64,000 bases of DNA from an uncultured Nitrososphaerota archaeon. GTDB lineage: Archaea; Korarchaeota; Korarchaeia; Korarchaeales; Korarchaeaceae. The stretch covers positions 99,771 to 163,770 of the forward strand of contig CAZQNA010000005.1 of NCBI GenBank assembly GCA_964594835.1, given 5' to 3'. A program made the position numbers and the translations under genes. The notes beneath the pieces were generated by a model. That model saw only the letters and a list, made by a program, of their open reading frames with translations. It had not been told where the DNA came from and did not search any database. This document shows positions 8,900-58,135 of this stretch, one piece after another (positions within the stretch are counted from its first letter, which is position 1; each line of letters opens with the position of its first letter).

Positions 8900-9454
8900 A
8901 TGCTCCTGAGTGATAGGTCCATAAGGGCCCTGTTGAAGTCCGGCGAGCTCGTCATAGACCCCCTGTGTTCGGACACGGTGAGAGAGAACGGGGTTGACCT
9001 CAGGATAGGTGGACAGGTCGCGTTCCCCGTTGAGAGGGGAGGGACGATCGACCTCGCGGGGGCGGAGCCGGAGGAACAGTTCGTCAGGGTCGACATCCCC
9101 AGAGAGGGCCTCCTGATTCCCGGGAACTCCAGCGTCCTACTGGTCACGGAGGAGAGGGTCAGGCTGCCGTCGAATCTGGCCGGCCTCTGCGGGCTCAGGA
9201 GCACCCTGGCGAGGTGGGGATTTCTCTCGGCTCCGACCCTCATCGACGCCGGGTTCGAGGGGCAGCTGACTATCGAGGTCTTCTGGACGAGGCCCTCTCC
9301 GGTCAGGATCTACCGCGGACTGCGGTTCCTTCACGTGGTCTTCTTCAGGCTGGACGAGAACTCCACCAGGCCCTACTCCGGCTTCTACCAGGGCCAGAGC
9401 GGGGTCAGCCTCCCGAAGAGCCTGGGTGATGAGGTTGAGGATCTCGAGGGTTGA
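8900..9454 (+). CDS. dcd: dCTP deaminase
   Basis: MLLSDRSI N-terminus, YQGQ C-terminal motif; TATA GATTAAAT ~30 nt upstream. Confidence 0.9.
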   Translation: MLLSDRSIRALLKSGELVIDPLCSDTVRENGVDLRIGGQVAFPVERGGTIDLAGAEPEEQFVRVDIPREGLLIPGNSSVLLVTEERVRLPSNLAGLCGLRSTLARWGFLSAPTLIDAGFEGQLTIEVFWTRPSPVRIYRGLRFLHVVFFRLDENSTRPYSGFYQGQSGVSLPKSLGDEVEDLEG

Positions 9455-10340
9455 GGCGGCCGGAGGTGACTGGCTCCTCTACGTGGGGGCCAGGGTGTCC
9501 AGGAGCTCCAAGCCCCTCGAGGACATGATCAGGGAGGCCACGCCGAGGAGGATGGAGAGTCTGTTCAGAAAGCTCCTCGGTTGGGGGCACCTCTCGGTCT
9601 TCGAGCACAGTCTGATCCGGGTCTGGGTGGAGGGAAGCCGCGACGAGGTCAAGTCGAGGCTCTTCCACTGGAAGTTCGTCGAGTACTCGGAGGACGAGGG
9701 GGTGCTGTCCCTGAACCCCAGGGTCGCCATAGAGATGCTCGAGCGGGGCGGGCCCGAGCTGAGGGAGCTTGCCAGAAGTGTCCTCTCCCCATTCCCCGTG
9801 CTGTCCAGGTGCCTGGGACTGGGGTCTGGCGGGGGGCCATCTGGAGGGTCCAGCCCGACGCGTCCGACGAGCGCCCAAGAGGAGGGAATCTGGGTCCACA
9901 TGCTGTCTTCCTCCCCCTGGCCCGATCCGAGGCACGGCTTCCACGCCTTCCTCGTGGAGGGGATATCCAGGGTGTGCAGCCACCAGCTGGTGAGGCACAG
10001 GGCCCTCAGCTTCACTCAGCAGAGTCAGAGGGTGTCTCAGGTGGTGGGCTACTACCTCCCGGGCCACCTGGACGAGGATCTCAAGGCCAGCATGGGGAGG
10101 GAGATAGAGAGGGCCCTCAGAATATACTATGGCCTCTTGGATGCCGGAGTCGAGATGGAGGACGCCAGGTACCTCCTCCCGCAGGCGTGCACCACCAGGA
10201 TCCTAGTCAGCGGGAGGGACTCCGCGTGGCTCCACTTCATAAGGCTGAGGGCCGCGAAGGAGGCCCAGAGGGAGATCAGGCTCGTGGCTCAGATGGTTAG
10301 GCGCCTGTCCGGTCTGGAGCCGACCTACCCCCGGGGTTGA
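9429..10340 (+). CDS. thyX: FAD-dependent thymidylate synthase ThyX (with Gly/Ser-rich insertion)
   Basis: ThyX motif HQLVRHRALSFTQQSQR; overlaps the dcd 3' end. Confidence 0.88.
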   Translation: MRLRISRVEAAGGDWLLYVGARVSRSSKPLEDMIREATPRRMESLFRKLLGWGHLSVFEHSLIRVWVEGSRDEVKSRLFHWKFVEYSEDEGVLSLNPRVAIEMLERGGPELRELARSVLSPFPVLSRCLGLGSGGGPSGGSSPTRPTSAQEEGIWVHMLSSSPWPDPRHGFHAFLVEGISRVCSHQLVRHRALSFTQQSQRVSQVVGYYLPGHLDEDLKASMGREIERALRIYYGLLDAGVEMEDARYLLPQACTTRILVSGRDSAWLHFIRLRAAKEAQREIRLVAQMVRRLSGLEPTYPRG

Positions 10341-15261: not shown

Positions 15262-16644
15262 TCACTCCACCGTCGACAGCAGTAGCCTCCCCCTGGCGGT
15301 TATCGAGTACATCACCCTCGACCTCCCGCTCTTGGACACTGTCTGGACCCTCGCTATGGCCCCCATCTCCTCCAGCGCCTTCAGGTGCTGGTAGACTGCT
15401 GGCAGGGAGATCTCCACGCCGGCATCCCTGAGCCTCCTCCAGATCTCGTACCCGTGAAGCCTACCCGACGTGAGCATCCTCAGTATGGCGGTCTTGGTCC
15501 TGCCGAGCGGCCGCCCCGGCCCCTCCCCCCTCACGTAGGCGTCGGCCAGGTGGAGCCTCTCCAGCTCCCTCACGGCTGCGGTCGGGTCCTTGAGGCCAGA
15601 GCCCGTCACCACCAGGACGACGGTGTCTGAGGGCGACAGCTCCCCCTCCACCCTGAGCCTCTCGGCGGCGGCGAGGGTGGAGGCGGCCGCGGGCTCGGCG
15701 AATATCCCCTCCGCCCGCGCCAGCTTCCTGGATGCCTCCAGCATCTCCTCGTCCCCCACGGTGATCAGGTCGCCCCCGCTCTCTCTAACCGCCCTCTTGG
15801 CCTGGCTCAGCCGATCCGGCTCAGGAAAGTGCAGGTCTAGGGCCACGGCGCTCTCCTCGGTGGGTCTCACTCCGTAGAGGCGCACTCCCTCCCTCTTGGT
15901 GAGTCCCAGCTCCCTCGCCTCCCCTATGCCCTTCCAGACGGCCGTCATCAGGGAGCCGCTCCCGACCGGCAGTATCATGGCGTCTGGCTCGGACCACCCC
16001 AGCGACTCCAAGACCTCAAGGGACAGGGTCTTCTCACCCTCAACCAGGAGGGGATCCGAGTTCATGGCGGAGTAGTAGCGGGCGGGCGTTTCGAGGCGAC
16101 CGTTGGGTGGGGAGACCGCCGCCCCGTAGGCGATCATCTGGTAGAGCTTCGCAGGATCGGTCGGCCCATCCACCCTGATGGCGCAGCCTATCCCGGCCCT
16201 GGCCGCGTAGGCGGCGAGGGAGGCGCCGAGGTTCCCCTTCACCTTCCCGCTCACCCCATCGTATCCCTCCTGGACGACCCTCGTGACGAGGACAGTGGAG
16301 CCCCTGTCTATGAAGCACCCCGTGGGGTTCTTCGTCTCGTCCTTCACCAGCAGCCCCTCCAGGCCCACCTCCCCTCCAAGCCTCCGACAGGCGTGGAGCC
16401 TCGTTCCCCCCTCCCCGAGCGTAATCGGGTCTCTGGACACAGGGAGCAGCTCTCTGTACCTCCACACTCCCGCGACCCTGCTGGCCAGGATCTCCGGGGT
16501 CAGCTCTCCACTCATCTCGTGGAGATCGGGAACCAGAATCAGGGGCTCACCGCACCTCGGACAGGCGGGCTGGACCCTCTCCACCTCCCTCTCCGCCCCG
16601 CACCTGGGGCAGCGGGCCACCCATCTCATCTCAGTTCGATACAT
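15262..16644 (-). CDS. threonine synthase-like (degenerate PLP site) protein fused to N-terminal Zn-ribbon and C-terminal PadR-type winged HTH
   Basis: CPRCG...CPRCG ribbon; collinear with ThrC (RYRELLPVS, EKTLSLEV, VVTGSGLKD); NPTGSFKDRG is NPTGCFIDRG here (codon ATA checked at 16309-16311); STGNT is KGNLG and GNAGN is GSGSL; C-terminal GYEIWRRL...LPAVYQHLKALEEMG is PadR-like. Confidence 0.8.
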   Translation of the reverse strand: MYRTEMRWVARCPRCGAEREVERVQPACPRCGEPLILVPDLHEMSGELTPEILASRVAGVWRYRELLPVSRDPITLGEGGTRLHACRRLGGEVGLEGLLVKDETKNPTGCFIDRGSTVLVTRVVQEGYDGVSGKVKGNLGASLAAYAARAGIGCAIRVDGPTDPAKLYQMIAYGAAVSPPNGRLETPARYYSAMNSDPLLVEGEKTLSLEVLESLGWSEPDAMILPVGSGSLMTAVWKGIGEARELGLTKREGVRLYGVRPTEESAVALDLHFPEPDRLSQAKRAVRESGGDLITVGDEEMLEASRKLARAEGIFAEPAAASTLAAAERLRVEGELSPSDTVVLVVTGSGLKDPTAAVRELERLHLADAYVRGEGPGRPLGRTKTAILRMLTSGRLHGYEIWRRLRDAGVEISLPAVYQHLKALEEMGAIARVQTVSKSGRSRVMYSITARGRLLLSTVE

Positions 16645-21384: not shown

Positions 21385-21741
21385 TCACTTGCCCGGCGGA
21401 ACTGCGTGGGCCGGTATCAGGCATATGAACACCAGGTCCTCCTCCCCGTCGTTTCGGAAGGTGTGTTTAACCCCTCCTGGAATGAACAGGAACGTTCCCG
21501 GCTGGAGATCGTGCTCCTCCCCGTCTAGCGTCGCCCTCCCCCTCCCCGAGAGTATGAACACCTCGTGCTCCCACTCGTGAGAGTGAGGTGGAGCCTCGCC
21601 CCCGGGGACCATTCGGAACACCCTCATGGCGAAGTTCGGGGCCCCGTCGCCGGGGGTTATGAGCCACCTCCTGTAGAGTCCCCTGGCGGACGTGACCTCC
21701 TCCTCCGGCACCTTTCGCCAGTCTCCGACCTTTGGTCTCAC
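21385..21741 (-). CDS. cupin domain protein
   Basis: PHSHEWEHEVFIL...GGVKHTF cupin motifs; paralog of 35003..35368. Confidence 0.8.
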   Translation of the reverse strand: MRPKVGDWRKVPEEEVTSARGLYRRWLITPGDGAPNFAMRVFRMVPGGEAPPHSHEWEHEVFILSGRGRATLDGEEHDLQPGTFLFIPGGVKHTFRNDGEEDLVFICLIPAHAVPPGK

Positions 21742-21744: not shown

Positions 21745-22197
21745 TCACGCCCCCACGTAATCCAGCTCGAATTCGATTTCGACGCACCCCCTCAGAGTCC
21801 GGGTGAGGTGGCAGTACCTCTCGGCCAGGTCGGCCAGCCTCTCGGCCTTCTCTCTGGGAGGTCCTGCCACCCTCATGGTCACCCAGATCCGCGTTATCCT
21901 GAACCCTCCCCCCACCAGCTCGGTCCTCGTCTTCACCCTCACCGCCAGCTCCCTCAGCGGGAGCTCCATCTTCTTGGCGAACCAGATAGCGGTCGTGAGG
22001 ATGCACCCGCTCATGCTGGCGGCGAAGAGATCGTCCGGGGACGGGGCCTCGTCCAGCCCGCCGAAGTCCTTTGCCATGTCTATCTCGAACCTGTCTCCCC
22101 GGGGGAGGGTGACTACGCCTCCCATCCGGCCGTTCCAGACGGCCTCAGCCTCGTACTCCATTGGACCCTCAGGCTTCTTTATCGACAGGGCTACCAC
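21745..22197 (-). CDS. OsmC/Ohr family peroxiredoxin-like protein
   Basis: Two conserved Cys in SMSGCILTT and YCHLTRTL. Confidence 0.82.
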   Translation of the reverse strand: MVALSIKKPEGPMEYEAEAVWNGRMGGVVTLPRGDRFEIDMAKDFGGLDEAPSPDDLFAASMSGCILTTAIWFAKKMELPLRELAVRVKTRTELVGGGFRITRIWVTMRVAGPPREKAERLADLAERYCHLTRTLRGCVEIEFELDYVGA

Positions 22198-22259
22198 CCA
22201 CCGGCTCCCCCTCTCCAGAAACTTAAAGAGTGTGCATGCCCTTTAGGGCGATCGCATCC

Positions 22260-22739
22260 ATGTCGTCCATGGAGATCCTCGTGGTTCTGGATGCTGACTG
22301 CTCCTCCTCGGAGGAGGTAATACGTCTGCTGGGGAAGATGCTGGAGGAGAGAGGTTACGTCAAGAGCACGTTCGTCGGGGCAACCCTGGAGAGGGAGAAG
22401 AGCGTTCCCACCGGACTCGAACTAGCCGGGGGAGTCAACGCGGCACTCCCTCACGCCGGGGTTGAGCACGTCAACCGGCCGGCCCTGGCCGTGGCCAGGC
22501 TGAGGAGGTCCGTGACCTTCCGCAGGATGGACGATCCGGAGTCCGAGGTCTCCGTCAGGCTCGTGTTCATGCCGGCCATCAAGGAACCGAGCTCCTACAT
22601 CAAGACCCTGATGAGGCTAGTCGACGTCTTCAAGGACCCGGAGGTGATGTCGGCCCTGATGAGGGCCCGCACCGAACAGGAAGTCGTTGAGATCCTGAGG
22701 GAGAGGCTCTCGGCCCCTGAGGGCTCGGGGGAGCCTTAG
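22260..22739 (+). CDS. PTS EIIA component, PTS_EIIA_2 (galactitol/ascorbate/mannitol type)
   Basis: ALPHAG active-site His motif; ORF opens with GTG at 22230 but TATA AACTTAAAGAG at 22219-22229 favours ATG 22260. Confidence 0.8.
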   Translation: MSSMEILVVLDADCSSSEEVIRLLGKMLEERGYVKSTFVGATLEREKSVPTGLELAGGVNAALPHAGVEHVNRPALAVARLRRSVTFRRMDDPESEVSVRLVFMPAIKEPSSYIKTLMRLVDVFKDPEVMSALMRARTEQEVVEILRERLSAPEGSGEP

Positions 22740-22786
22740 AAAGGTTATTAAGTATGATAGTCTGTTGGTGGGAGCTGGGGGAGCCC

Positions 22787-23113
22787 ATGACCGCGAAGCC
22801 CCGTGACGTCAAGATCCTGGTCGCCTGCGGGACCGCTATTGCGACCGCCACGGTCGTGGCGGGCAAGATCAAGCAGGCCTTCGAGAAGCTGAAGATCCCG
22901 GTCACGATAGTGCAGTGCAAGGCGTCGGAGGTCCAGGGCAAGATAGAGGTCTTCGACCCGGACGTCATAGTCGCCAACACACCGATCTCTGAGAAGGCGG
23001 CCAGGGGCAAGCCCGTGATCAACGGGGTACCCTTCCTCACCGGGATAGGGGAGAAGGAGGCTCTGAAGAAGATATTCGAGGCCGTGGGGATAGCCCCTCC
23101 GGCCGACCTGTGA
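22787..23113 (+). CDS. PTS EIIB component, galactitol (GatB) type
   Basis: KILVACGTAIATATV phospho-Cys motif; collinear with GatB; own TATA GGTTATTAAGTATG upstream. Confidence 0.85.
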   Translation: MTAKPRDVKILVACGTAIATATVVAGKIKQAFEKLKIPVTIVQCKASEVQGKIEVFDPDVIVANTPISEKAARGKPVINGVPFLTGIGEKEALKKIFEAVGIAPPADL

Positions 23114-23115
23114 AA

Positions 23116-23121
23116 TTTTTT
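23116..23121 (+). terminator. T6 run after the EIIB stop (archaeal-type terminator signal)
   Basis: tgaaattttttacg immediately after the stop codon. Confidence 0.4.
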
Positions 23122-23286
23122 ACGAAATTAGAGCGACCCTTGAGGCCAGCCCGCTTCTTTTCGGCTTCAGAGCGGACAGTTGGCTCAGGAGGCTCCTTTT
23201 CTCTGGAGTAACAATCGCTAACTTTATTAGTAAGAGTCGAAGTCGTGGTAGTCAGCCGTCGAGCGCAGACGGCTGGTGAGTGGAAG

Positions 23287-24555
23287 ATGGACATCGTTGG
23301 AGCAGTCCAGTGGTTTCTGGGGCTGGGTGCCACGGTAGCCATACCAATAATCCTGTTCATAGTGGGCTTGGCCTTCAAGATACCCGCAAGTAAGGCGTTC
23401 AGGGCGGCGCTGACGATCGCCTGCGGCTTCGTGGGCATAAACCTGGTGATAGGCCTGCTGTGGGGGACCATGAGCGACGTGGCCCAGGCGATGGTGCAGA
23501 GGACCGGGATCGAGCTGACCGTCATCGACGTGGGCTGGCCGGCCGCGGCCGCTATCGCCTGGGGCACGATCGTGGGCGCCCTCACGATCCCGATAGACTT
23601 CATCATCAACATCATCATGCTGGCCCTTGGCCTCACGAAGACCATGGACATCGACTTCTGGAACTACTGGCACTTCGCGTTCACAGGGTCCCTGGTCACT
23701 ATGGCAACCGATAGCGTTCCCCTCGGGCTGATCGCATCCGCAATCAACGCGATAATAGTGTTCAAGCTCGGAGACTGGACGGCAGAGGGAGTGCAGGAGA
23801 TGCTCGGGATCCCGGGCATATCGCTGCCACACGGCTTCTCCGCTGCGTACGTCCCCATAGGCATCCCGATCAAGAAGGCGATCGACGCCATACCACCCCT
23901 GCGGGATGTCAGGGCTGATCCAGAGGCCATCCGGGAGAGGCTGGGCGTCCTGGGGGAGCCGATGGTCATAGGCTTCATAATAGGCATCCTCCTGGCCATC
24001 GCGGCCGGGCAGGACATCGCGGGCATCCTGAACACGGGCGTGACCCTGGCCGGCGTCATGTACCTCATGCCAAAGGTTGTAGCCATACTGATGGAGGGGC
24101 TGGTCCCGATATCGGAGGCTGGCAAGAAGATCCTGGAGGAGAAGTACGGCGGGAGAGAGATGTACATCGGTCTGGACTCTGCGATCGCCATCGGTCACCC
24201 GACCGCCATAGCCGCGGCCCTGATACTGGTCCCGATAACGATAGGCCTCGCGTTCGTGCTGCCGGGCAACAAGTTCCTGCCCCTCGCCGACCTGGCCGTC
24301 CTGCCCTTCATGGTCTGCATGCTCGTGCCGATCGTGAAGGGCAACGTGGTCCACACGGTCATCATAGGGGCGATCGTGCTCATCCCGGCCATGTACATAG
24401 GCACCTTCCTGGCGCCGTACGTCACGCAGGCCGCCATAACCGCGGGCTTCGAGGCCCCTGAGGGGGCTACCCTGATCTCCAGCATCTGCGATGGTACCAA
24501 CCCGCTGACCTTCGTCCTCTTCCTGCCGTTCTACCTCCTGTTCGGGAAGAAGTGA
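23287..24555 (+). CDS. PTS EIIC component, galactitol/ascorbate family (GatC-like permease)
   Basis: Collinear with E. coli GatC: VIDVGWP, KLGDW, LPHG, GEPMVIGF, VMYLMPKV; ~10 TM. Confidence 0.9.
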   Translation: MDIVGAVQWFLGLGATVAIPIILFIVGLAFKIPASKAFRAALTIACGFVGINLVIGLLWGTMSDVAQAMVQRTGIELTVIDVGWPAAAAIAWGTIVGALTIPIDFIINIIMLALGLTKTMDIDFWNYWHFAFTGSLVTMATDSVPLGLIASAINAIIVFKLGDWTAEGVQEMLGIPGISLPHGFSAAYVPIGIPIKKAIDAIPPLRDVRADPEAIRERLGVLGEPMVIGFIIGILLAIAAGQDIAGILNTGVTLAGVMYLMPKVVAILMEGLVPISEAGKKILEEKYGGREMYIGLDSAIAIGHPTAIAAALILVPITIGLAFVLPGNKFLPLADLAVLPFMVCMLVPIVKGNVVHTVIIGAIVLIPAMYIGTFLAPYVTQAAITAGFEAPEGATLISSICDGTNPLTFVLFLPFYLLFGKK

Positions 24556-24639
24556 GAGCGGGCCACCCCAGCCCTCTTCCCCTCTTTTTATTGCGGGCCG
24601 GCTTTCTCCCAGGGTCTGGTCGGAAGGAGGGACTCCACG

Positions 24640-25128
24640 TTGGACGAGTCGAATGGAGGCAGGGCCGTCCTCCTCTCTTACAAGAGGGAGATCGCGGTAA
24701 CCTTGGTAGTTCTGGTGCTGGCTGTCATGTGGCTCCACTCGGCCTTCAGCGTTCACTCAAACCTTAGGCTCGTGTACGCCCAGCCCTACGTCAGCGGAAA
24801 CTTCACCGGCCTCGCGCTGAACTTCACGCTGAAGAACGACGGATTCTACCCGCTCTTCGTCTCCGCGGGAATGAGCCTGAGAGACCCGGAGACGGGGGAG
24901 GTGATCGAGAACTTCTCCGCTTCACTGGGACTGGTCAAGGGTCGCAGCGACGGCTACAGGGTTCTGCTGCTCCCGCTGCCGCCCCAAACGATCGAGCAAC
25001 TCCCTCCGAGGCTCGAGGTCGACATGGTTGGCTACTACGAGGCCAAGCTGTTCTGGCTGCCGGGCATTCGCGTGCCTCTCCACAAGGAACTCGTCGCTCC
25101 CGTGCTGAACGAGACGTGGAAGGGGTGA
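24640..25128 (+). CDS. hypothetical membrane-anchored protein (1 TM)
   Basis: TTG start after T-rich CTCTTTTTATTG; single N-terminal TM. Confidence 0.45.
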   Translation: MDESNGGRAVLLSYKREIAVTLVVLVLAVMWLHSAFSVHSNLRLVYAQPYVSGNFTGLALNFTLKNDGFYPLFVSAGMSLRDPETGEVIENFSASLGLVKGRSDGYRVLLLPLPPQTIEQLPPRLEVDMVGYYEAKLFWLPGIRVPLHKELVAPVLNETWKG

Positions 25129-25175
25129 CAGAACATCTTCCAGATAGAAACGCCAAAAAGACTCGGGGGAGGAGC

Positions 25176-26318
25176 TTAAGCCAGCTCCTCCGGGTTCTCC
25201 AAGAGTTCAACCACCCGCCTCAGGAACCTGGCGGCGGGTACGCCGTCCACGACCCTGTGGTCGAAGACCAGGCAGAGGGCCATAAGGGGCCTGACCTCGA
25301 TCTCCCCCTCGGCTGCGACCGGAGTCTTGGTGATCGCGCCCACGCCGAGTATGGCGGACTGCGGCGGATTGATGATCGGCGTGAAGATCTCCACCCCCTC
25401 GGAGCCCAGGTTCGAGACCGTGAAGGTGCTCCCGGAGACGTCCCTGGGGCTTAGCCCCTCCTCGCTCCGAGCCTTGCTCGCCAGCTCCTCTATCTCCCTG
25501 GTTATCTGCATCAGGTCCTTCTTGTCGGCGTCTCGGACGACGGGCACCACGAGCCCGTCGGGGATGCTCACCGCGACGCCCACGTTGATCTCGTCGTAAA
25601 CGACTATCTTGTCCCCTACAACGCTCGAGTTGAGTTCCCTATGCTCCTCGAGGGCCTTGGCTACCGCCTTCACCACGAGGGCCGTTATTGAGAACTTCCT
25701 CCCCTCGGCAGCTTCGCGCCTCCTGAGCTCCAGGGCCCTGGACATGTCCGCCCTCATGACTATCGTGACGCTCGGTATCTCCCTGTGGCTCTCCGTCAGC
25801 CTCCTGGCTATCGTTCCCCTCTTTCCAGTCAGCTCGATCTCCCTCAGGACTCTAGGCCCCTCCTCGCCAAGCTCGGCCCTGGGGCCGGCGGATTCCACGT
25901 ACCTGAGGACGTCCTCCCTGGTTATCCTCCCGCCGGGGCCCGTGCCCCGCACCTCCCTGAGGTCGACGCCGTACTCCCTGGCCAGTCGCCTGGCGGCCGG
26001 GCTGGCCCTAACCTCGACCGTCCCGCTGGGGGCCTCCCGCCTGTACTCCTCCTCCGCCGAGATCTGCTCCCCGGGGGCCGCGACGACCGCCAAGACTGTC
26101 AGCACGGGAACCTCCTCGCCCTCCTGAACGAGGATCTTGGCGAGCACTCCGTCGGCCGGCGACTCGATCGGGAAGGTGGTCTTCTCCCCCTCTGCGGTGG
26201 CTATCTCCTCGCCCTTCTTGACCGGCTCGCCCTCCCTCTTCAGCCACTTGATCAGCTTGCCCGTCTTCATTCCGGGGTCGAGGCGGGGCATCACGACCTT
26301 CCACGGCATCGCTATCAT
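25176..26318 (-). CDS. dihydrolipoamide acyltransferase (E2 component of a 2-oxoacid dehydrogenase complex)
   Basis: Lipoyl domain with EGEKTT lysine, subunit-binding domain, catalytic DHRVVDG. Confidence 0.9.
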   Translation of the reverse strand: MIAMPWKVVMPRLDPGMKTGKLIKWLKREGEPVKKGEEIATAEGEKTTFPIESPADGVLAKILVQEGEEVPVLTVLAVVAAPGEQISAEEEYRREAPSGTVEVRASPAARRLAREYGVDLREVRGTGPGGRITREDVLRYVESAGPRAELGEEGPRVLREIELTGKRGTIARRLTESHREIPSVTIVMRADMSRALELRRREAAEGRKFSITALVVKAVAKALEEHRELNSSVVGDKIVVYDEINVGVAVSIPDGLVVPVVRDADKKDLMQITREIEELASKARSEEGLSPRDVSGSTFTVSNLGSEGVEIFTPIINPPQSAILGVGAITKTPVAAEGEIEVRPLMALCLVFDHRVVDGVPAARFLRRVVELLENPEELA

Positions 26319-26327: not shown

Positions 26328-27335
26328 CTACACTATGCCCTCCACCGCCTCGACTATGTCCTTTGCCCAGCGCATGTACCGCTTCTCGAGCGAGGGGGAG
26401 AACGGGATGGGCATGTCGGGCGACGCCACCCTCACGATCGGGGCGTCCAGGTAGTCGAAGGCCCCCTCGACGATGGTGGCCGCCAGCTCGGCGGTGACGC
26501 CGCCGGTCTTGCAGTCGTCCGCCGCCACGACGGCCCTCCCCGTCTTCTTCACGGATTCCACTATCGTCTTCCTGTCCAGGGGGTTGAGGGTCCTTGGATC
26601 GATCACCTCCGCGCTTATCCCCTTCTTCTCGAGCTCCTCGGCGGCCTTCAGGGCCTCGTGAACCATCCTGGACACCGCCACGATGGTGACGTCGCTTCCC
26701 TCCCTCTTCACGTCCGCCACGCCCAGGGGGACCTCGTAGGGCTCCTCCGGCACGGGGCCCTTCACCCCGTAGTAGAGAACTGCGCACTCGATGAACAGCA
26801 CGGGGTTGTCGTCCCTTATCGAGCTGATGATGAGCCCCTTCGCGTCGTAGGGTGTCGAGGGGGTCACCACCTTCAGCCCGGGGACGTTCATGTACCAGGC
26901 CGGGAAGAAGTTTGAGTGCTGGGCCGCGTGCGCCCTCCCCAGGCTGTACTGGGTCCTCACCACCATCGGCACCTTGAGCTTGCCGCCCGATGAGAACCTC
27001 ATCTTGGCCGCCTGGATGACCAGCTGCTCGGTCGCTATCGGCAGGAAGTCCATGTACATGATCTCGGCCACGGGCCTCAGCCCCATTATCGCCGCCCCTA
27101 TGGCCGCCCCCACGATGGCGATCTCGGATATGGGGGTGTCCCTCACCCTCTCCGGGCCGAACTCCTCCAGGAGCCCCTTGGTTACCTTGAACGCCCCGCC
27201 GTACGCTCCTATGTCCTCGCCCAGGAGGACGACGCTCTCGTCCCTCTGCATCTCCTGCCTGAGTCCCTCCCTTATGGCCTCCGCGTAGGTGAGAACTCGC
27301 TCCTCGCCGCCGCTCAAGCGTAGATCACCTCCCAC
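26328..27335 (-). CDS. 2-oxoacid (pyruvate) dehydrogenase E1 beta subunit
   Basis: Transketolase-like pyrimidine and C-terminal domains. Confidence 0.9.
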   Translation of the reverse strand: MGGDLRLSGGEERVLTYAEAIREGLRQEMQRDESVVLLGEDIGAYGGAFKVTKGLLEEFGPERVRDTPISEIAIVGAAIGAAIMGLRPVAEIMYMDFLPIATEQLVIQAAKMRFSSGGKLKVPMVVRTQYSLGRAHAAQHSNFFPAWYMNVPGLKVVTPSTPYDAKGLIISSIRDDNPVLFIECAVLYYGVKGPVPEEPYEVPLGVADVKREGSDVTIVAVSRMVHEALKAAEELEKKGISAEVIDPRTLNPLDRKTIVESVKKTGRAVVAADDCKTGGVTAELAATIVEGAFDYLDAPIVRVASPDMPIPFSPSLEKRYMRWAKDIVEAVEGIV

Positions 27336-28342
27336 AGCCTCTCAAATTCCAGGACCTCGCTCTCATCGGCGAACCTAACGGCCTCCTCGATCTCCCTGGC
27401 CACCTCCTCCCTGATTCCCCTTAGAACCTCCTCAGTGGCGATCCCTGCCTCCACGAGCTTCCTCTCGAACCTCGGCAGGGGGTCCCTCTTCTCCCACTCC
27501 TCGACCTCCTCCTTCGGCCTGTAGGTCGCCTTGTCGTACACCCCGTGCCCCTTGAGCCTGTACGTGATGAACTCGATCAGGGTAGGGCCGTCCCCCCGAA
27601 GCGCCCTGTCCGCGGCCTCTTTCGTGGCCTTGTAGACGCTCAGAACGTCGTTCCCGTCGACCACCACGCCCGGCATCCCGTAAGAGACGGCCCTCAGGGC
27701 GATTCTCCCGCACGTCACGGACCTGCTCGCCGGCATTGACATCCCCCACTGGTTGTTCTCGCAGGCGAAGATCACCGGGAGCTTCCAGAAGGACGCGAGG
27801 TTCAGCCCCTCGTGGAACGCGCCGGTGTTCGCGGCCCCGTCGCTGAAGAACCCGACGACCACCTTCCCCTCTCCCCTGTACTTGATGGCCAGCGCCGCCC
27901 CGGCCGCTATGGGGATGCCGCTGCCGACTATGGCGGAGGCCCAGAGCCCACCCCTCTCGGGGTCTATGGCGACGTGCATGGAACCGCCGAGCCCCCTGAC
28001 GACGCCGGTCTTCTTCCCGAACAGCTCCGCCATCACCTCCCTGGCCGGAATCCCGATCGCGAGGGCGTGGCCGTGTCCCCTGTGGTGGCTCACTACGTAC
28101 CCGAAGCCCTCTATGGCCCGGGCCACGCCCACCGCGATCGCCTCCTCTCCAGTGTAGAGGTGAGCCGTCCCCTGAATCCTCGCCTCGTAGAGATAGAGCT
28201 GCTCAACTCGTCCCTCAAAGAAACGAAGCTCCACTAGTTTTCTGTACATCTCAAGGAGGTCTTCCCTCGTCAATCCGAGGGAGAGGGCCTCTTGGACGGA
28301 GACCCCCCTGACCTCCTCCACCTCCACCTCCAGCTTCCCCAA
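27314..28342 (-). CDS. 2-oxoacid (pyruvate) dehydrogenase E1 alpha subunit (TPP-binding)
   Basis: TPP motif GDGAANTGAFHEGLNLA; 22-nt overlap with E1 beta. Confidence 0.9.
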   Translation of the reverse strand: MGKLEVEVEEVRGVSVQEALSLGLTREDLLEMYRKLVELRFFEGRVEQLYLYEARIQGTAHLYTGEEAIAVGVARAIEGFGYVVSHHRGHGHALAIGIPAREVMAELFGKKTGVVRGLGGSMHVAIDPERGGLWASAIVGSGIPIAAGAALAIKYRGEGKVVVGFFSDGAANTGAFHEGLNLASFWKLPVIFACENNQWGMSMPASRSVTCGRIALRAVSYGMPGVVVDGNDVLSVYKATKEAADRALRGDGPTLIEFITYRLKGHGVYDKATYRPKEEVEEWEKRDPLPRFERKLVEAGIATEEVLRGIREEVAREIEEAVRFADESEVLEFERLWEVIYA

Positions 28343-28375: not shown

Positions 28376-29059
28376 TTATAGTTTTTGATGATGGTGGTGA
28401 CCCGCCTCCGCGCACCTTCTCAGCTCTCTCGCCGAGTTCGCGGGATCTCCCCGGCCGAAGATGGCCGAGCCGGCTATTATGACGCTCGCACCCGCCTCGA
28501 TGACTCTCTCAATGGTGCCGCAGTTTATCCCCCCGTCAACGGCTATCGGGATGTCCAGGCCCCTCTCCCTCAGCACCTCTCTCAGCCGCGAGATCTTTCC
28601 CAGCGTGCCCTCTAGGAACCTCTGCCCACCGAACCCCGGCTCGACCGTCATCACAAGGACGATGTCCACCTCGCCAAGCACCTCCTCAAGCGAGGTCAGC
28701 GGCGTCCCCGGGTTTATTGCCAGGCCGACCTCGACCCCCGAGGACCTCAGCGAGCCACAGAGGGAGAAAGGCCTCTTGGATGCCTCCACGTGGAAGTAGA
28801 TCACGTCGGAGCCCGCCTCCGCGAACCTCTCCGCGTACCTCTCCGGGGCATCTATCATGAGGTGGGCCTCGATTGGAAGGTCCGTGGCCCTCCTCAGGGC
28901 CCTGACCACGGGGAGCCCGAACGAGAGATTCGGAACGAAGTGACCGTCCATCACATCAACGTGGATCGAGTCGACGCCCCCTTCCCTGGCGCGGACAACC
29001 TCCTCACCGAGCCTGGAGAGGTCTGCCGAGAGTATGGAGGCCGAGAGGCGGATCGTCAT
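28376..29059 (-). CDS. rpe: ribulose-phosphate 3-epimerase
   Basis: RPE TIM-barrel motifs HVDVMDGHFVPN, VMTVEPGFGGQ; C-terminal HHHH tail. Confidence 0.9.
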   Translation of the reverse strand: MTIRLSASILSADLSRLGEEVVRAREGGVDSIHVDVMDGHFVPNLSFGLPVVRALRRATDLPIEAHLMIDAPERYAERFAEAGSDVIYFHVEASKRPFSLCGSLRSSGVEVGLAINPGTPLTSLEEVLGEVDIVLVMTVEPGFGGQRFLEGTLGKISRLREVLRERGLDIPIAVDGGINCGTIERVIEAGASVIIAGSAIFGRGDPANSARELRRCAEAGHHHHQKL

Positions 29060-29081: not shown

Positions 29082-29092
29082 AGTATTTAAGG
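29082..29092. promoter_or_regulatory. shared divergent TATA-like box AGTATTTAAGG between rpe (-) and HPr (+)
   Basis: 23-33 nt from the rpe ATG (29059) and 27-37 nt from the HPr ATG (29119). Confidence 0.5.
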
Positions 29093-29118: not shown

Positions 29119-29403
29119 ATGAGTTCAATGGCCCACGCGGAGGCGAGGGTTCAGCTGAGGAACAGAGTGGGACTCCACGCCCGACCAGCGTCTCTCTTCG
29201 TGCAGACGGCAAGGAGATTCAGCTCCAAGATTGTCGTTAGAAAGGATGATAAGGAAGCCGACGCCAAAAGCATCCTCGGAGTGCTCTCCCTGGGCGCCGA
29301 GTGCGGCCACTGGATAACGATCGTGGCCGAGGGAGACGACGCCGAGGAGGCCGTCCAGACGCTGGCGTCCCTCGTCGAGAGCCGATTTGGGGAGGCTGAG
29401 TGA
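29119..29403 (+). CDS. ptsH: phosphocarrier protein HPr
   Basis: Active His in GLHARPAS; GAECGHWITIV; ORF opens with TTG at 29104. Confidence 0.85.
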   Translation: MSSMAHAEARVQLRNRVGLHARPASLFVQTARRFSSKIVVRKDDKEADAKSILGVLSLGAECGHWITIVAEGDDAEEAVQTLASLVESRFGEAE

Positions 29404-31150
29404 CTTGCGGGCCGGCCCCCGGGAGTTCAGGGGCATACCCGCCTCACCGGGAGTCGCTGTCGGGAGGGCTTACCTGTACGTTCGGGGCTACGTAGAGGTC
29501 GAGAAGAGGAAGCTTAGCGAGGACGAGGTCGAAGGAGAGATACTGAGATTTGAGAGCGCCGTCACGCTCTCTAAGGGATACCTGAAGAGGCTGTATGAGA
29601 GGGTAAAGGCGGAGGTGGGCGAGGAGGAGGCGAAGATCTACGAGGCGCACCTGATGATCCTGGAAGACGAGGCCTCCTTCCTGAAGCCCGTGGAGGTCAT
29701 GATAAGGGAGCAGATGGTCAACGCCGAGTACGCCGTCGAGACCGTGCTCGAGAGGGTCGCCAAGCTCTTCGAGGAGATGGAGAGCCAGTACATGAGGGAG
29801 AGGGCGGCCGACGTGAGGGACGTGAAGAGGCTTGTCCTGACGGCCCTCAAGGGGAAGATAAACGAGATCTCGGCGCCTCCGGAGGAGTCGGTCATAGTGG
29901 CCCACGAGCTGCTGCCGAGCGACGTCGCCACCCTCGACAAGTCCAAGGTCCTGGGCTTTGCCACGGACACGGGAGGCCCCACATCCCACGTCGCGATAGT
30001 TGCGAGGACCCTCGGCATACCGGCGGTGGTGGGGCTCAAGGACCTCTCGGTCCACGTGAGGACCGGAGATCAGGTCGTGGTGGACGGGGACCAGGGGCTC
30101 GTGATAGTCAGGCCAGACAGGGAGACCCTCAAGACCTACAGGATCAGGATGTCCGAGCAGATCCGAGAGAAGATGGCCCTCATGAAGTACGCGACCCTGC
30201 CAGCCGAGACGAGGGACGGCTTCAGGATAGGCGTGTTCGCCAACGTCGGGGGAGTGGAGGACCTGGAGCAAGCCCTCACGATGGGGGCCGAGGGTATAGG
30301 CCTGCTGAGGACGGAGTTCATGTACGTCAACTCCCCGAGGTTCCCCACGGAGGATGAGCTCTACTCGAGCCTCAGGAGGTTCGTGGAGAGGATGGGGGAG
30401 AGGCCGGTGATAGTCAGGACCCTCGACATGGGCGCCGACAAGCCGCTCCCCTACTTTTCCATGCCCCCTGAGCCCAACCCCATGCTCGGCTGGAGGGGGG
30501 TGAGGGTCACCCTAGACAGGCCGGAGATCCTCATGACTCAGGTGAAGGCCGCCCTGAGGGCGGCTGTCCACGGGAACCTGTGGATAATGTTCCCGATGAT
30601 CTCCACTGTCGAGGAGGTCAGGAGGGCGAGGGAGCTGATTCACGACGCCGCCTCCCAGCTGAGGAAGGAGGGGAAGGAGCACAGGGATGAGGTGAAGGTG
30701 GGGGTGATGATTGAGACCCCCTCCGCCGTGTTCCTGGCCAGAGACCTGGCCAGGGAGGTTGACTTCTTCAGTATAGGGACCAACGACCTCACCCAGTACG
30801 TCATGGCGGCCGACAGGACGAACGAGCTCGTGGCCGACCTCTACAACCACCTCCAGCCCTCCGTGATCAGGGCCGTCAGCCGGGTTGTGCAGGCCGCGAG
30901 GGAGGTGGAGATCCACGTGGGAATGTGCGGGGAGATGGGCGGGGACGAGCTTGCCATCCCCCTGCTAGTCGGAATGGGACTGGACGAGATCAGCATGGCC
31001 CCGGCCTCAATCCCCAGGGCCAAAAGGTTGGTGAGATCGATAACTAGGGAGTCGGCCGAGACCCTCTTGGAGGAGGTCCTGAGGGCGAGCACGCTCGGCG
31101 AGGTTAGGGAGATCCTGGAGTCGTACGCGAGGTCAATCTCATACGACTAG
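29387..31150 (+). CDS. ptsI: phosphoenolpyruvate-protein phosphotransferase (PTS Enzyme I)
   Basis: GIPASPGVAVG N-terminus, phospho-His GGPTSHVAIVAR, PEP-utilizing C-terminal domain; start may be TTG at 29405. Confidence 0.9.
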   Translation: MGRLSDLRAGPREFRGIPASPGVAVGRAYLYVRGYVEVEKRKLSEDEVEGEILRFESAVTLSKGYLKRLYERVKAEVGEEEAKIYEAHLMILEDEASFLKPVEVMIREQMVNAEYAVETVLERVAKLFEEMESQYMRERAADVRDVKRLVLTALKGKINEISAPPEESVIVAHELLPSDVATLDKSKVLGFATDTGGPTSHVAIVARTLGIPAVVGLKDLSVHVRTGDQVVVDGDQGLVIVRPDRETLKTYRIRMSEQIREKMALMKYATLPAETRDGFRIGVFANVGGVEDLEQALTMGAEGIGLLRTEFMYVNSPRFPTEDELYSSLRRFVERMGERPVIVRTLDMGADKPLPYFSMPPEPNPMLGWRGVRVTLDRPEILMTQVKAALRAAVHGNLWIMFPMISTVEEVRRARELIHDAASQLRKEGKEHRDEVKVGVMIETPSAVFLARDLAREVDFFSIGTNDLTQYVMAADRTNELVADLYNHLQPSVIRAVSRVVQAAREVEIHVGMCGEMGGDELAIPLLVGMGLDEISMAPASIPRAKRLVRSITRESAETLLEEVLRASTLGEVREILESYARSISYD

Positions 31151-37025: not shown

Positions 37026-37242
37026 TAGATCACCTCGCGGTCCCTCGCCGACACGAGGGTATTTAAGTTATTCTCAGCCCTGCAGGGGCCTCGGGGGGCC
37101 CTCAGCACCATCCGAACGGTTCAGATCCCAGTTCAGCCTGATCCGGGTGGGTTGGGGGGCCCGTCGGGGGAGGAGATTAGTCCCCGCTCTACTGTGTCAA
37201 CGTTTTTTACGTCCCGGGGGCGGGTCGCGGGGGTGTCCCCGA

Positions 37243-37824
37243 ATGCTCGAAATCAGGTGGCACGGCCGGGGGGGCCAGGGCGTCTGGAGCGCCTCTGCGG
37301 TCCTGGCCTCTGCGGCCATAGGCACGGGGAAGTACGCGCAGTCCTTCCCACAGTTCGGACCGGAGAGGACCGGCGCGCCCGTCTTGGCCTTCAACAGAAT
37401 CGACGAAAGGCCCATAGTCGTCCACTCCATGATCTACGAGCCAGACGTTGTTGTCGTCATAGACAGGACCCTCCTCTCAGACAGGGACGCGATCTTGGGT
37501 GGCCTCAGGCCCGGGGGGCACCTCATCGCGGACACAGACGAGTCCCCTGAGGCCCTGAGGTCCAGGCTCAACGTTCCCGACAGCATCCACGTGTGGACCA
37601 TGGATGCCGTGTCCCTCGCCCTCGACGAGATAGGCAGGGCCGTGACCAACACCCCGATGCTCGGGGCCGTGATCAAGGCCACGGGGGTCGTACCTCTGGA
37701 GGCGGTCGAGGGGTCGATCCGGGAGAGGTGGAAGGGAGAGATAGGGGAGAAGAACGTCAAGGCTGTGAGGAGGGCGTTCAGCGAGGTGGCCCACTCCCCG
37801 GCTAAGGCGGAGGTGACCGCTTGA
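37243..37824 (+). CDS. porG: pyruvate:ferredoxin oxidoreductase gamma subunit
   Basis: RWHGRGGQG N-terminus; ORF-track 5' extension rejected; TATA ACGTTTTTTACG upstream. Confidence 0.88.
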   Translation: MLEIRWHGRGGQGVWSASAVLASAAIGTGKYAQSFPQFGPERTGAPVLAFNRIDERPIVVHSMIYEPDVVVVIDRTLLSDRDAILGGLRPGGHLIADTDESPEALRSRLNVPDSIHVWTMDAVSLALDEIGRAVTNTPMLGAVIKATGVVPLEAVEGSIRERWKGEIGEKNVKAVRRAFSEVAHSPAKAEVTA

Positions 37825-38096
37825 TGTCTGCTCTGAAGGGTTGGAGGGAGATTCCCATAGGAGGGGTTCCGTTCGAGCCGGCGGCCAAGTACAAGACCGG
37901 CGACTGGAGGGTCTTCAAGCCCGTCATCGACAACGAGAAGTGCATCAAGTGCGGCCTGTGCTGGGTGTTCTGCCCGGACAGCTCCATAGTCTGGGACGGA
38001 GACGGCTTCCCCACGGTTGACTACGAGCACTGCAAGGGCTGCGGGATCTGCGCGCACGAGTGCCCGACCAAGGCCATCGAGATGGTTAGGGGATGA
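37821..38096 (+). CDS. porD: pyruvate:ferredoxin oxidoreductase delta subunit (2x[4Fe-4S])
   Basis: CIKCGLCWVFCP and CKGCGICAHECP; ATGA overlap with porG. Confidence 0.9.
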   Translation: MMSALKGWREIPIGGVPFEPAAKYKTGDWRVFKPVIDNEKCIKCGLCWVFCPDSSIVWDGDGFPTVDYEHCKGCGICAHECPTKAIEMVRG

Positions 38097-39352
38097 TCGT
38101 CGGGGTGAGCGAGATGGCCAAGTCCATCCAGCAGAGGATGATGTCCCTCAATGGGGATGAGGCGGTTGCCTGGGCGGCTAGGCAGAGCAACGTCGACGTC
38201 GTGGCCGCCTTCCCGATAACCCCCCAGACGATAATCATGGAGAGGATAGCCGAGTTCATCCACGACGGTCTGATGGACTCCGAGATAATCAGGGTCGAGA
38301 GCGAGCACAGCGCCCTGAGCGCCTCCTGGGGCGCCTCGGTCGCCGGGGCGAGGGCATTCACGGCCACGGCCGCCAACGGCCTGGCCCTCATGTGGGAGAT
38401 CCTCTACATCGTCGCGTCCAGCAGGGCCCCGGTGGTGATGGCAGTCGTCAACAGGGCACTGAGCGCCCCCATCAACATCCACTGTGACCACAGCGACTCT
38501 ATGGGAGCCAGGGACTCTGGCTGGATCCAGATCTACAGTGAGGACGCCCAGGAGGCTTACGACAACACGATCCAGGCCTTCAGGATAGCGGAGCACGAGG
38601 ACGTCCAGCTCCCGGTCATGGTAATGCTGGACGGCTTCCTGATCTCCCACACTATGCAGAACGTCCAGATCCTGCCTGAAGACGTGGTGTCGGACTTTGT
38701 GGGTTACAGGAAGCCCTCAAAGATAAGGCTGCCCGAGTTCTACGGCGAGAAGGACATCCCGTTCATGCTGAACCCCAGGTACCCGATCTCAATAGGCCCG
38801 CTGGACCTCTACGACTACTACTTCGAGCACAAGATGCAGCAGATCGAGGCCATGGGCAGGGCCCCGGAGGTGATCAAGCAGATTCACAGGGAGTTCGCCG
38901 AGATCAGCGGGAGGTCCTACGGCGACGGCCTGCTCGATCCCTACAGGGCAGACGACGCGGACGTCCTCATAATCGGGATCGGGAGCACGATGGGCACCAT
39001 GAAGGCGGTCGTCGACGAGCTGAGGGAGGAGGGCAAGAGGGTCGGCTCCGTCAGGGTCAGGACCTTCAGGCCCTTCCCGGCCGACGAGATCAGGAGGTTC
39101 GCCTCGGGGGTCTCCTCCGTCGGGGTGCTGGACAGGAGCGCGAGCTTCGGCGCAGAGGGCGGCCCGCTGTTCCTGGAGGTGAGGTCGGCCCTCTACGCTC
39201 TCAGGGACAGGCCTCCGGTCCTGGGATACATCTACGGGCTTGGAGGAAGGGACATGCCGCCCAAGCTGCTGAAGAAGATCGCTGAGGAGGTCCTGAGCGC
39301 CAGAGAGGAGCCTGAGAGGCCCAGGATAACCTTCCCGGGGGTGAGGGAGTAG
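38093..39352 (+). CDS. porA: pyruvate:ferredoxin oxidoreductase alpha subunit
   Basis: POR alpha architecture; ATGA overlap with porD (alternative ATG 38114). Confidence 0.9.
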   Translation: MIVGVSEMAKSIQQRMMSLNGDEAVAWAARQSNVDVVAAFPITPQTIIMERIAEFIHDGLMDSEIIRVESEHSALSASWGASVAGARAFTATAANGLALMWEILYIVASSRAPVVMAVVNRALSAPINIHCDHSDSMGARDSGWIQIYSEDAQEAYDNTIQAFRIAEHEDVQLPVMVMLDGFLISHTMQNVQILPEDVVSDFVGYRKPSKIRLPEFYGEKDIPFMLNPRYPISIGPLDLYDYYFEHKMQQIEAMGRAPEVIKQIHREFAEISGRSYGDGLLDPYRADDADVLIIGIGSTMGTMKAVVDELREEGKRVGSVRVRTFRPFPADEIRRFASGVSSVGVLDRSASFGAEGGPLFLEVRSALYALRDRPPVLGYIYGLGGRDMPPKLLKKIAEEVLSAREEPERPRITFPGVRE

Positions 39353-39355
39353 GGG

Positions 39356-46736: not shown

Positions 46737-46752
46737 AGGAAGACCCGAACTC

Positions 46753-47445: not shown

Positions 47446-47471
47446 GGGCCCCGGGCGCAGGGACCTCACCC

Positions 47472-47482
47472 GAAATATAATG
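47472..47482. promoter_or_regulatory. bidirectional TATA element GAAATATAATG shared by the divergent GT2 (-) and HAD (+) genes
   Basis: 26-33 nt upstream of both proposed start codons (47445 and 47504). Confidence 0.55.
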
Positions 47483-47503
47483 TATGGGCGGGCCCGTCGC
47501 TGG

Positions 47504-57301: not shown

Positions 57302-57302
57302 G

Positions 57303-58046: not shown

Positions 58047-58118
58047 CTAAGGGGTCTGTCAAATGGGAGTCTTAATGCTGATGGGGCAAAATTTCCAAAT
58101 GAGGGCAAAAAAAGTAAA

Positions 58119-58135
58119 TTTCGTCTGTGACGAAA
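58119..58135. promoter_or_regulatory. 17-bp perfect palindrome TTTCGTC-tgt-GACGAAA (operator-like) in the AT-rich divergent intergenic region
   Basis: seen directly in sequence; ~75-90 nt upstream of the 58046 start. Confidence 0.5.

Follow-up and report, generated by a model that had tools for sequence, protein, structure and literature searches.

The phosphotransferase system (PTS), in which phosphoenolpyruvate (PEP)-dependent phosphorylation accompanies the uptake of a carbohydrate, is held to be absent from archaea with few exceptions, among them Thermofilum pendens (PMC2797409), and a functional fructose PTS is cited for Haloferax (Pickl et al. 2012, via PMC7997004). Here we analysed a stretch of 64,000 nucleotides (nt; hereafter the window) from an uncultured hot-vent archaeon of the Korarchaeia (assembly GCA_964594835.1, contig CAZQNA010000005.1), which carries genes for the PTS components EIIA, EIIB and EIIC. 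Judged from its sequence, this locus is likely to be a complete and functional PEP-dependent PTS of the Gat family (Transporter Classification, TC, 4.A.5) that was taken from bacteria as a block together with a cupin and the E1 and E2 enzymes of a 2-oxoacid dehydrogenase complex. An initial annotation of the same DNA described PTSs as rare in archaea, which agrees with the published view (PMC2797409) and yet has to be qualified, because proteins named EI or EIIC are found in assemblies of Korarchaeota, Bathyarchaeota, Odinarchaeota and Thermoprotei. Our literature search found no paper on a PTS in Korarchaeia, on the structure of GatC or on a PTS linked to E1/E2 enzymes; the proteins are already named in public Korarchaeota assemblies.

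Two systems of Escherichia coli are useful for comparison. The sgc operon (SgcA/B/C) encodes a Gat-family EIIABC of unassigned substrate and, beside it, SgcE, which is Rpe-like, and SgcQ, which is BtpA-like; it is not known to contain an E1/E2 complex or a cupin. The locus studied here resembles it in joining a Gat EIIABC to a ribulose-phosphate 3-epimerase (Rpe), and Korarchaeia loci of low G+C content also have a BtpA-family gene and PfkB kinases nearby, a likeness of gene content; the window itself is unlike sgc in having no BtpA gene. With the galactitol PTS of E. coli (GatA, GatB and GatC) the locus shares the organization into three separate proteins, the Pfam families and the phosphorylation-site motifs, but it has no genes of the GatD, GatY or GatZ type, its neighbours are the cupin, E1/E2 and Rpe, and its host and upstream boxes are of archaeal type. 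The EIICs of enterobacterial type, taken as the GatC type, are only 30-34% identical to that of the window and form a separate branch in our tree. Thermofilum pendens and Haloferax volcanii likewise have a bacterial-type PTS in an archaeal host, the system of Haloferax belonging to the fructose family and the EII of T. pendens being presumably of the Gat type.

Phosphotransferase genes, their conservation and origin

The listing of open reading frames (ORFs) and profile searches place EIIA, EIIB and EIIC as three successive genes on the plus strand between 22260 and 24555 (Table 1), and each of them lies far above the curated cut-off of its Pfam family: EIIA scored 107.7 bits against PF00359 (E = 6.3e-31; cut-off 27), EIIB 43.2 bits against PF02302, the Lac/Cel/Gat type (E = 6.6e-11; cut-off 23.6), and EIIC 282.8 bits against PF03611, EIIC-GAT (E = 6e-84; cut-off 24.2), the last over profile positions 2-393 of 394. 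The three consecutive genes of the initial annotation are therefore upheld, although position 22198, from which it had the set begin, is merely the base following the divergent OsmC gene. The starts that we chose (22260, 22787 and 23287) rest on public gene calls and on conservation, the ATG of EIIA agreeing with the call of 159 amino acids (aa) in the related locus L001 and the 422-aa EIIC being identical, residue for residue, to the called gene in three public assemblies. NCBI names near-identical EIIC proteins 'PTS galactitol transporter subunit IIC [Candidatus Korarchaeota archaeon]'.

The residues needed for phosphate transfer can be recognized on alignment to solved homologues. In EIIA the phosphorylatable histidine is His65 in the motif AALPHAG, which aligns with the 'aiPH' or 'IPH' of EIIA chains of the 1XIZ type, and in EIIB the phosphorylatable cysteine is Cys14 within ILVACGTAIATA, where ILVACG is aligned to the IIVACG of GatB 1TVM (E = 2.5e-12) and where the 'VACG' of 5GQS aligns likewise. 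EIIC matched the solved GatC 9u82 over its full length (residues 7-412; E = 1.5e-94) and groups with the Gat-family EIICs (TC 4.A.5), not with secondary carriers. Neither of the two outcomes that the initial annotation had named as refuting its reading was thus observed. As to the motifs quoted in the initial annotation, ALPHAG, VACGTAIATA, VIDVGWP, KLGDW and LPHG are all present, and what was given as FGEPM reads LGEPM.

The general components of the pathway are situated approximately 4.5 kb downstream of EIIC. HPr exceeded the cut-off of TIGR01003 (96.2 bits; cut-off 47.9) and has its histidine in GLHARPA and the equivalent of Ser46 in KSILG, both of which align with 3LE1, its best solved relative (E = 3e-28), which we take to be the HPr of Thermoanaerobacter tengcongensis. 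Enzyme I (EI) exceeded that of TIGR01417 (616.6 bits; cut-off 341.7), matched the PEP-utilisers_N, mobile and C-terminal domains of Pfam, and shows the histidine motif GGPTSHVAIVAR (with the histidine in GGPTSH) and the cysteine motif CGEMGGD; its 581 residues are 100% identical to the public protein P0121, with an exact match in one assembly. With HPr and EI the phosphorelay is complete, all five PTS components being present. These two genes had been overlooked in the initial annotation, as had the cupin, the E1alpha, E1beta and E2 genes, Rpe and the existing public annotation of Korarchaeota. On the basis of the protein families, phosphate would pass from PEP to the GGPTSH histidine of EI, to the GLHARPA histidine of HPr, to His65 of EIIA and to Cys14 of EIIB, which would then phosphorylate a polyol or ketose in the course of its passage across the membrane by way of EIIC.

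Synteny of the locus extends over at least six assemblies of related genomes, which come from different samples and among which a lineage of 41% G+C is represented. All Korarchaeia loci of sufficient length share the set cupin, OsmC, EIIA, EIIB, EIIC, ORF-X, E2, E1beta, E1alpha, Rpe, HPr and EI. The divergent OsmC-like gene and the cupin lie just upstream of EIIA, the cupin adjoining the PTS in all Korarchaeia loci, and the five genes between EIIC and HPr are ORF-X on the plus strand and E2, E1beta, E1alpha and Rpe on the minus strand. In the 41% G+C lineage EIIA is inverted, BtpA and two PfkB genes stand upstream, and synonymous sites are saturated.

No other gene of this neighbourhood is constrained nearly as strongly as EIIC. 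Compared with the loci L001, L005 and L006 its identity to the window is 99%, while that of the S-adenosylmethionine (SAM) synthetase is 90%, that of EI 85-88%, that of EIIA 78-82% and that of Rpe 73-76%; in the vent assemblies INS_M12_B43 and Aegir_M25_B147 EIIC is 99% identical and the flanking genes 70-95%, and in the Kor4 locus it is 82% identical. In the 41% G+C lineage EIIC retains 85% identity where EI retains just 56%. We considered whether EIIC had been exchanged recently, given that its amino acid identity is 99% and that of its neighbours 73-94%, and rejected this explanation: nucleotide identity is 87-89% and the synonymous divergence (dS) 0.6-0.8, so that selection, not recent transfer, accounts for the similarity. 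The ratio of nonsynonymous to synonymous divergence (dN/dS) of EIIC was 0.007-0.014 at dS values of 0.60-0.79, the lowest of the neighbourhood, compared with 0.10-0.14 for EIIA, 0.03-0.09 for EIIB and 0.03-0.25 for neighbouring genes in the same comparisons (SAM synthetase, 0.05-0.06; most other neighbours, 0.06-0.17). Every gene of the locus has a dN/dS well under 1, indicating purifying selection, and this lends indirect support to a function in PEP-dependent phosphorylation and uptake. In the window, with a G+C content of 63-69%, the G+C content at third codon positions (GC3) of the PTS genes is 0.84-0.86, equal to that of the host genes, which points to an old acquisition. By these compositional and substitution data the PTS genes appear to be long-standing residents that are clearly in use.

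The origin of the system was examined in a neighbour-joining tree of EIIC with 200 bootstraps and the enterobacterial type as outgroup. The Korarchaeia form one clade (100%), which joins a clade containing Bathyarchaeota (77%) and then the metagenome locus L056 (90%), and all of these are nested in bacterial EIICs of a Firmicutes/Chloroflexota radiation. The closest named EIICs outside the group belong to Thermoanaerobacterales and other thermophilic Firmicutes (57-60% identity), followed by Chloroflexota, and a cluster approximately 60% identical to EIIC holds a 'Candidatus Bathyarchaeota archaeon' protein. The EI proteins of high-G+C and low-G+C Korarchaeia also form one clade (75%). We read the nesting, which speaks for the horizontal acquisition that the initial annotation had proposed to test by phylogeny, as one old transfer from bacteria to archaea in this region of the tree, with the reservation that the tree method is simple and most of the sequences are unnamed. 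Thermophilic bacteria of Firmicutes/Chloroflexota type would have passed the system to the ancestor of the Korarchaeia group as one block including the cupin and E1alpha-E1beta-E2, and the block would afterwards have been rearranged, given archaeal promoters and held under strong selection.

Some further loci deserve mention. Three contigs (L117-L119) carry a complete Gat-type PTS composed of HPr, a methyltransferase, EIIA-EIIB-EIIC and EI, with no E1/E2 in view; their EIIC shares a 90%-identity cluster with a protein that NCBI assigns to Bathyarchaeota, and L117 comes from SRR21418557, the same sequencing run as the organism of the window. L056, a metagenome contig of 44% G+C, resembles the Korarchaeia loci in that its PTS is surrounded by Rpe, HPr and EI, and its E2 is split into a lipoyl-domain protein (6787-7038, 83 aa) and a catalytic protein (9076-9909, 277 aa).

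Linked enzymes, substrate and alternative readings

The proposal that the PTS moved together with the enzyme block derives from its bacterial relatives. In Thermoanaerobacter sp. A7A (L015) and in a Thermoanaerobacteraceae assembly (L011), a regulator is followed on one strand by EIIA-EIIB-EIIC-cupin-E1alpha-E1beta-E2, that is, by the same gene set as in the window, with identities to the window of 57-60% for EIIC, 51-54% for E1alpha and E1beta, and 34-39% for the cupin and E2. These bacterial genes make up a single operon, controlled by a LevR-like activator of the sigma-54 kind in which PRD and EIIA domains are present. The archaeal locus has no such regulator; its genes are arranged in divergent units that have A/T boxes of their own, and Rpe, ORF-X and the adjacent HPr-EI pair are added. 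A homologous cupin follows EIIC directly in five bacterial operons (L011, L015, L055, L059 and L060), and E1/E2 genes stand beside the PTS in at least 15 of 80 metagenome loci with related EIICs, in two layouts and over a G+C range of 33-64%. In two of the metagenome loci (L038 and L067) a SorC-type regulator was identified, in three others (L051, L090 and L111) ORFs of similar appearance lie upstream of E1alpha, and a DXR-like oxidoreductase (DRL, PF21135, type II family) is present in L051, L070 and L077. When only well-flanked loci were considered (with 5 kb or more to either side of EIIC), E1 was adjacent in 7 of the 24 with an EIIC identity of at least 47% and in none of the 19 below that value. 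A locus of the sister clade (L032; EIIC 62% identical) has a lipoate-protein ligase gene (LplA-B_cat, 1964-2731) directly after EIIC and before HPr, a further tie of this EIIC subfamily to lipoyl-dependent enzymes. Since Korarchaeia hold the same genes in a rearranged order, it is probable that the block was transferred in one piece and that it functions together with the PTS, and the recurrent linkage suggests block transfer and a substrate-specific catabolic module. Among the enzymes of the window, Rpe exceeds the cut-off of TIGR01163 (259.7 bits; cut-off 212.6) and is kept at the same position in all sufficiently long Korarchaeia loci as well as in L056; E1beta is 92-95% identical across the high-G+C Korarchaeia loci and 80% identical to the low-G+C lineage; and the best solved relative of the cupin is Thermotoga TM1459 (E = 1e-20), an uncharacterized Mn cupin. 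The most likely role of the cupin, Rpe and E1/E2 would be to turn either the product of phosphorylation or the pyruvate that the PTS sets free into an acyl-CoA, the likeliest being acetyl-CoA.

Several points weigh against this interpretation of the locus. The linkage to E1/E2 is absent in approximately 70% of the well-flanked bacterial relatives and in the Bathyarchaeota-type loci seen, and is thus not obligatory for the EIIC subfamily. Neither an E3 (dihydrolipoamide dehydrogenase) gene nor a lipoylation gene was found within the 64-kb window, and the activity of E1/E2 consequently depends on genes elsewhere in the genome. The trees are neighbour-joining trees only, with weak deep nodes (60-77%), most of the metagenome sequences carry no taxonomy, and the PTS sequences of Thermofilum pendens and of haloarchaea were left out. 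Finally, all the organisms involved are uncultured, and the function of the PTS is predicted from sequence.

With respect to the enzyme block, the alternative that fares best is that E1alpha-E1beta-E2 is an ordinary pyruvate dehydrogenase (PDH) that travels with the PTS and oxidizes the pyruvate derived from PEP, in which case it would be uninformative about the substrate. The PTS yields one pyruvate per imported sugar, and both E1 subunits are best matched by pyruvate dehydrogenase models: E1beta exceeds the cut-off of NF006667 (376.6 bits; cut-off 321), the bacterial E1alpha of L015 and both E1beta proteins score above curated cut-offs, and human PDH is the nearest solved relative of E1alpha (E = 4e-64). 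The window's E1alpha, nevertheless, remains under the PDH cut-off of TIGR03182 (352 bits; cut-off 393.85), and its E2, whose orthologue in L001 has the Pfam domains Biotin_lipoyl, E3_binding and 2-oxoacid_dh, is below that of TIGR01349 (313 bits; cut-off 445). Moreover, in bacteria the E1/E2 genes lie inside a PTS operon, after EIIC and the cupin and under a sugar-type regulator (LevR-like or SorC-type), an unusual place for a central enzyme; the linkage is confined to one EIIC subfamily; and the window has two pyruvate:ferredoxin oxidoreductase sets besides. We therefore regard an ordinary PDH as possible but rather unlikely.

A substrate-specific module would leave room for a more far-reaching proposal, which we put forward as a quite doubtful one. 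Gat EIIABC, cupin and E1/E2, joined in certain loci by Rpe or a DXR-like reductoisomerase, may represent an undescribed catabolic pathway of thermophilic bacteria and Korarchaeia that imports and phosphorylates a methyl-ketose or branched polyol, to be cleaved to acetyl-CoA and glyceraldehyde-3-phosphate. Substrates of this kind might be 1-deoxy-D-xylulose or, in loci with the DXR-like enzyme, 2-C-methyl-D-erythritol. The phosphorylated alpha-hydroxy-methyl-ketone would be oxidatively cleaved by the acetoin-dehydrogenase-like complex, in what would amount to the reaction of 1-deoxy-D-xylulose 5-phosphate synthase reversed onto lipoamide.

That the system is a true galactitol PTS, feeding galactitol-1-phosphate into the tagatose-6-phosphate pathway, appears improbable to us. 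The name given by NCBI to the EIIC orthologue would favour it, and so would the fact that the best NCBIfam and solved-structure matches of the three proteins are GatA, GatB and GatC, that two PfkB kinases lie near the PTS in low-G+C Korarchaeia loci, and that a class II aldolase and a triose-phosphate isomerase follow EIIC in Thermoanaerobacterium relatives. This last arrangement is one example of how the gene context differs among the relatives. All three galactitol-specific models, nonetheless, were below their curated cut-offs (EIIC, TIGR00827, 456.5 against 542.2 bits; EIIA, NF007236, 65.6 against 139; EIIB, NF007643, 55.9 against 95). Near the PTS we found neither galactitol-1-phosphate dehydrogenase nor tagatose-bisphosphate aldolase, and the whole window yielded no aldolase, no kinase and no dehydrogenase able to replace GatD. 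The EIIC subfamily is, in addition, separate from the enterobacterial type in the tree, and its setting beside a cupin, E1/E2 and Rpe does not resemble a gat operon. By any test applied the substrate is not galactitol, and we label the system as Gat family with its substrate unassigned, as the initial annotation had left it. Rpe in the Korarchaeia loci may point to an intermediate at the level of a pentulose phosphate.

It is highly unlikely that the phosphorelay is solely regulatory, sensing PEP and pyruvate without transport in the manner of PtsP-NPr-PtsN. Such incomplete regulatory PTS sets are frequent in bacteria (PMC8100219), but here a full-length EIIC permease is present and is under the strongest constraint of the locus (dN/dS about 0.01), and EIIB keeps the cysteine required for phosphorylation of the substrate.

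The archaeal origin of the contig is supported by an archaeal-type SAM synthetase adjoining EI (assigned by PF01941 in the L001 gene, which is 90% identical), by a four-subunit pyruvate:ferredoxin oxidoreductase cluster on the same contig and by proteins in the same 90%-identity clusters that NCBI names 'Candidatus Korarchaeota archaeon'. Bacterial contamination misbinned into an archaeal assembly, which would mean that there is no archaeal PTS here and for which one could cite the bacterial affiliation of the nearest named relatives outside the Korarchaeia group, is rendered so unlikely by these archaeal flanks and Korarchaeota-named relatives, by the recurrence of these flanks in independent assemblies of different samples, by a GC3 that agrees with the neighbouring genes and by archaeal-type A/T boxes in place of a sigma-70-like promoter, of which none was found in 22000-25300, that it can practically be set aside.

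Upstream elements, ORF-X and other features of the window

To locate promoter footprints, the intergenic DNA of five Korarchaeia loci was aligned, and invariant A/T-rich blocks stood out amid diverged, G+C-rich intergenic DNA. Such blocks precede each of the three EII genes, which bears out the claim that each gene has a TATA-like box of its own: GAAACTTAAAGA upstream of EIIA, the box listed in Table 1 upstream of EIIB, followed by a conserved Shine-Dalgarno-like run GGGGGAG, and AACTTTATTAGTAAG, also given as AACTTTATTAGTAAGAGTCGAAGT, upstream of EIIC. ORF-X and HPr are preceded by blocks of this kind too (Table 1). The core of the EIIC promoter, CTTTATTA at 23222-23229, is also retained in L007 and in the 41% G+C lineage, as AAGCTTTATTAAGA...GACGAAGT. 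The spacing of 27-58 nt between box and start is in keeping with archaeal TATA boxes and with leaders that are short or missing, so that a promoter role seems probable for these blocks, and in the case of HPr the spacing suggests a leaderless transcript.

The 5' leader of EIIC contains a predicted hairpin (Table 1) whose stem is identical in the window and in L001, L005, L006, L007 and L037, with a loop that varies in the last two. The 60-nt leader stretch that holds it (23236-23295) has a predicted folding energy of -19.9 kcal/mol (z = -1.8). The hairpin was seen in high-G+C lineages only and is not conserved in the low-G+C lineage; it may control the translation or stability of the message. 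Scans of the whole window against Rfam and for tRNAs gave no match.

ORF-X, the single-transmembrane ORF that the initial annotation had considered a possible part of the unit, is a real conserved gene under purifying selection (dN/dS 0.07-0.28), has a box of its own and occupies the same position in all Korarchaeia loci, but no link to the PTS beyond position was found. It has no Pfam or NCBIfam match, and among 5.8 billion and 1.84 billion proteins its relatives belong to Korarchaeota clusters only; outside the Korarchaeia there were no relatives except two weak repeat hits in giant proteins. The AlphaFold2 model (pLDDT 85) retrieved in a fold search only generic Ig-like or beta-sandwich matches (TM 0.4-0.55). 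Homology to the small membrane ORF that follows EIIC in bacteria was considered and rejected, as the ORF-X profile finds no such protein (best E = 0.18, an unrelated protein). ORF-X may be an accessory protein, its position being the sole tie to the PTS.

Table 1. Coordinates of the phosphotransferase genes, upstream elements and neighbouring genes in the window
Feature	Position	Strand	Remarks
Small metal cupin, TM1459 type	21385..21741	-	118 aa; PF07883, E = 6e-22
A/T box CAGAAACTTAAAGA, likely transcription factor B recognition (BRE)/TATA element of EIIA	22216..22229	+	about 30 nt before ATG 22260; invariant in five loci
EIIA, PTS_EIIA_2 (mannitol/fructose/galactitol) class	22260..22739	+	159 aa; ATG start
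Box GGTTATTAAGT, likely TATA element of EIIB	22743..22753	+	conserved
EIIB, GatB-like	22787..23113	+	108 aa; ATG start
Putative promoter block TAACAATCGCTAACTTTATTAGTAAGAGTCGAAGT of EIIC	23209..23243	+	identical in four loci
Predicted hairpin in the EIIC 5' leader	23252..23276	+	9-bp stem, 7-nt loop; 3' arm overlaps the GGTGA ribosome-binding site
EIIC, Gat-family membrane permease	23287..24555	+	422 aa; ATG start; stop at 24555
Box CTTTTTATT of ORF-X	24584..24592	+	conserved; conserved AAGGAGGGA run behind
ORF-X	24640..25128	+	162 aa; predicted N-terminal transmembrane helix and beta-sandwich
E2 dihydrolipoyl acyltransferase	25176..26318	-	lipoyl-domain Lys in EGEKT; catalytic DHRVVDG motif
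E1 beta, pyruvate/acetoin-dehydrogenase-like complex	26328..27335	-	NF006667
E1 alpha, thiamine-diphosphate dependent, PDH-like	27314..28342	-	TIGR03182
Ribulose-phosphate 3-epimerase (Rpe)	28376..29059	-	divergent from HPr; PF00834, E = 6e-73
Box GTATTTAAGG of HPr	29083..29092	+	conserved; about 27 nt before the HPr ATG
HPr	29119..29403	+	94 aa; PF00381, E = 4e-31
Enzyme I	29405..31150	+	581 aa; TTG start one base past the HPr stop

Elsewhere in the window, two 2-oxoacid:ferredoxin oxidoreductase sets exist besides E1/E2, one at 37147-40366 (gamma-delta-alpha-beta) and the other at 62279-63994 (fused gamma-alpha), and the organism may own several routes of 2-oxoacid oxidation. A patch of 52-54% G+C at 57000-60000, in a window of 65% G+C, goes together with low-GC3 ORFs that have no Pfam match (55907-58046) and with a 512-aa winged-helix protein (58426-59964), and may be an integrated foreign element. 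On the minus strand at 15262-16644 lies a 460-aa protein that combines a pyridoxal-phosphate domain (PALP, threonine-synthase-like) with a C-terminal PadR-type DNA-binding domain, an unusual fusion of enzyme and regulator whose families were taken from the corresponding gene of L001. There are also two dCTP-deaminase-like paralogues, at 8900-9454, beside the thymidylate synthase ThyX, and at 45136-45687. The longest ORF at 46592-48088 has a GC3 of 0.58, compared with approximately 0.85 in the real genes of the window, and is probably in the wrong frame.

Implications for the biology of Korarchaeia

The PTS is considered an invention of bacteria. A complete one appears to have been kept for a long time, and under very strong selection, in the deep-branching and uncultured Korarchaeia, whose use of carbohydrates is poorly known, and a complete Gat-type PTS related to it is present in a clade in which Bathyarchaeota assemblies are the sole members with a name. 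The locus would provide a concrete hint to the diet of these vent archaea and could aid their cultivation. At the level of genome evolution, it would illustrate clearly how a bacterial block of several genes can be refitted with promoters of archaeal type. Of the leads that emerge, the one that most deserves attention is the link of this EIIC subfamily to a pyruvate/acetoin-dehydrogenase-like complex, which points to a PTS-coupled pathway of which we found no description; strains of Thermoanaerobacter, being genetically tractable, offer a way into it.

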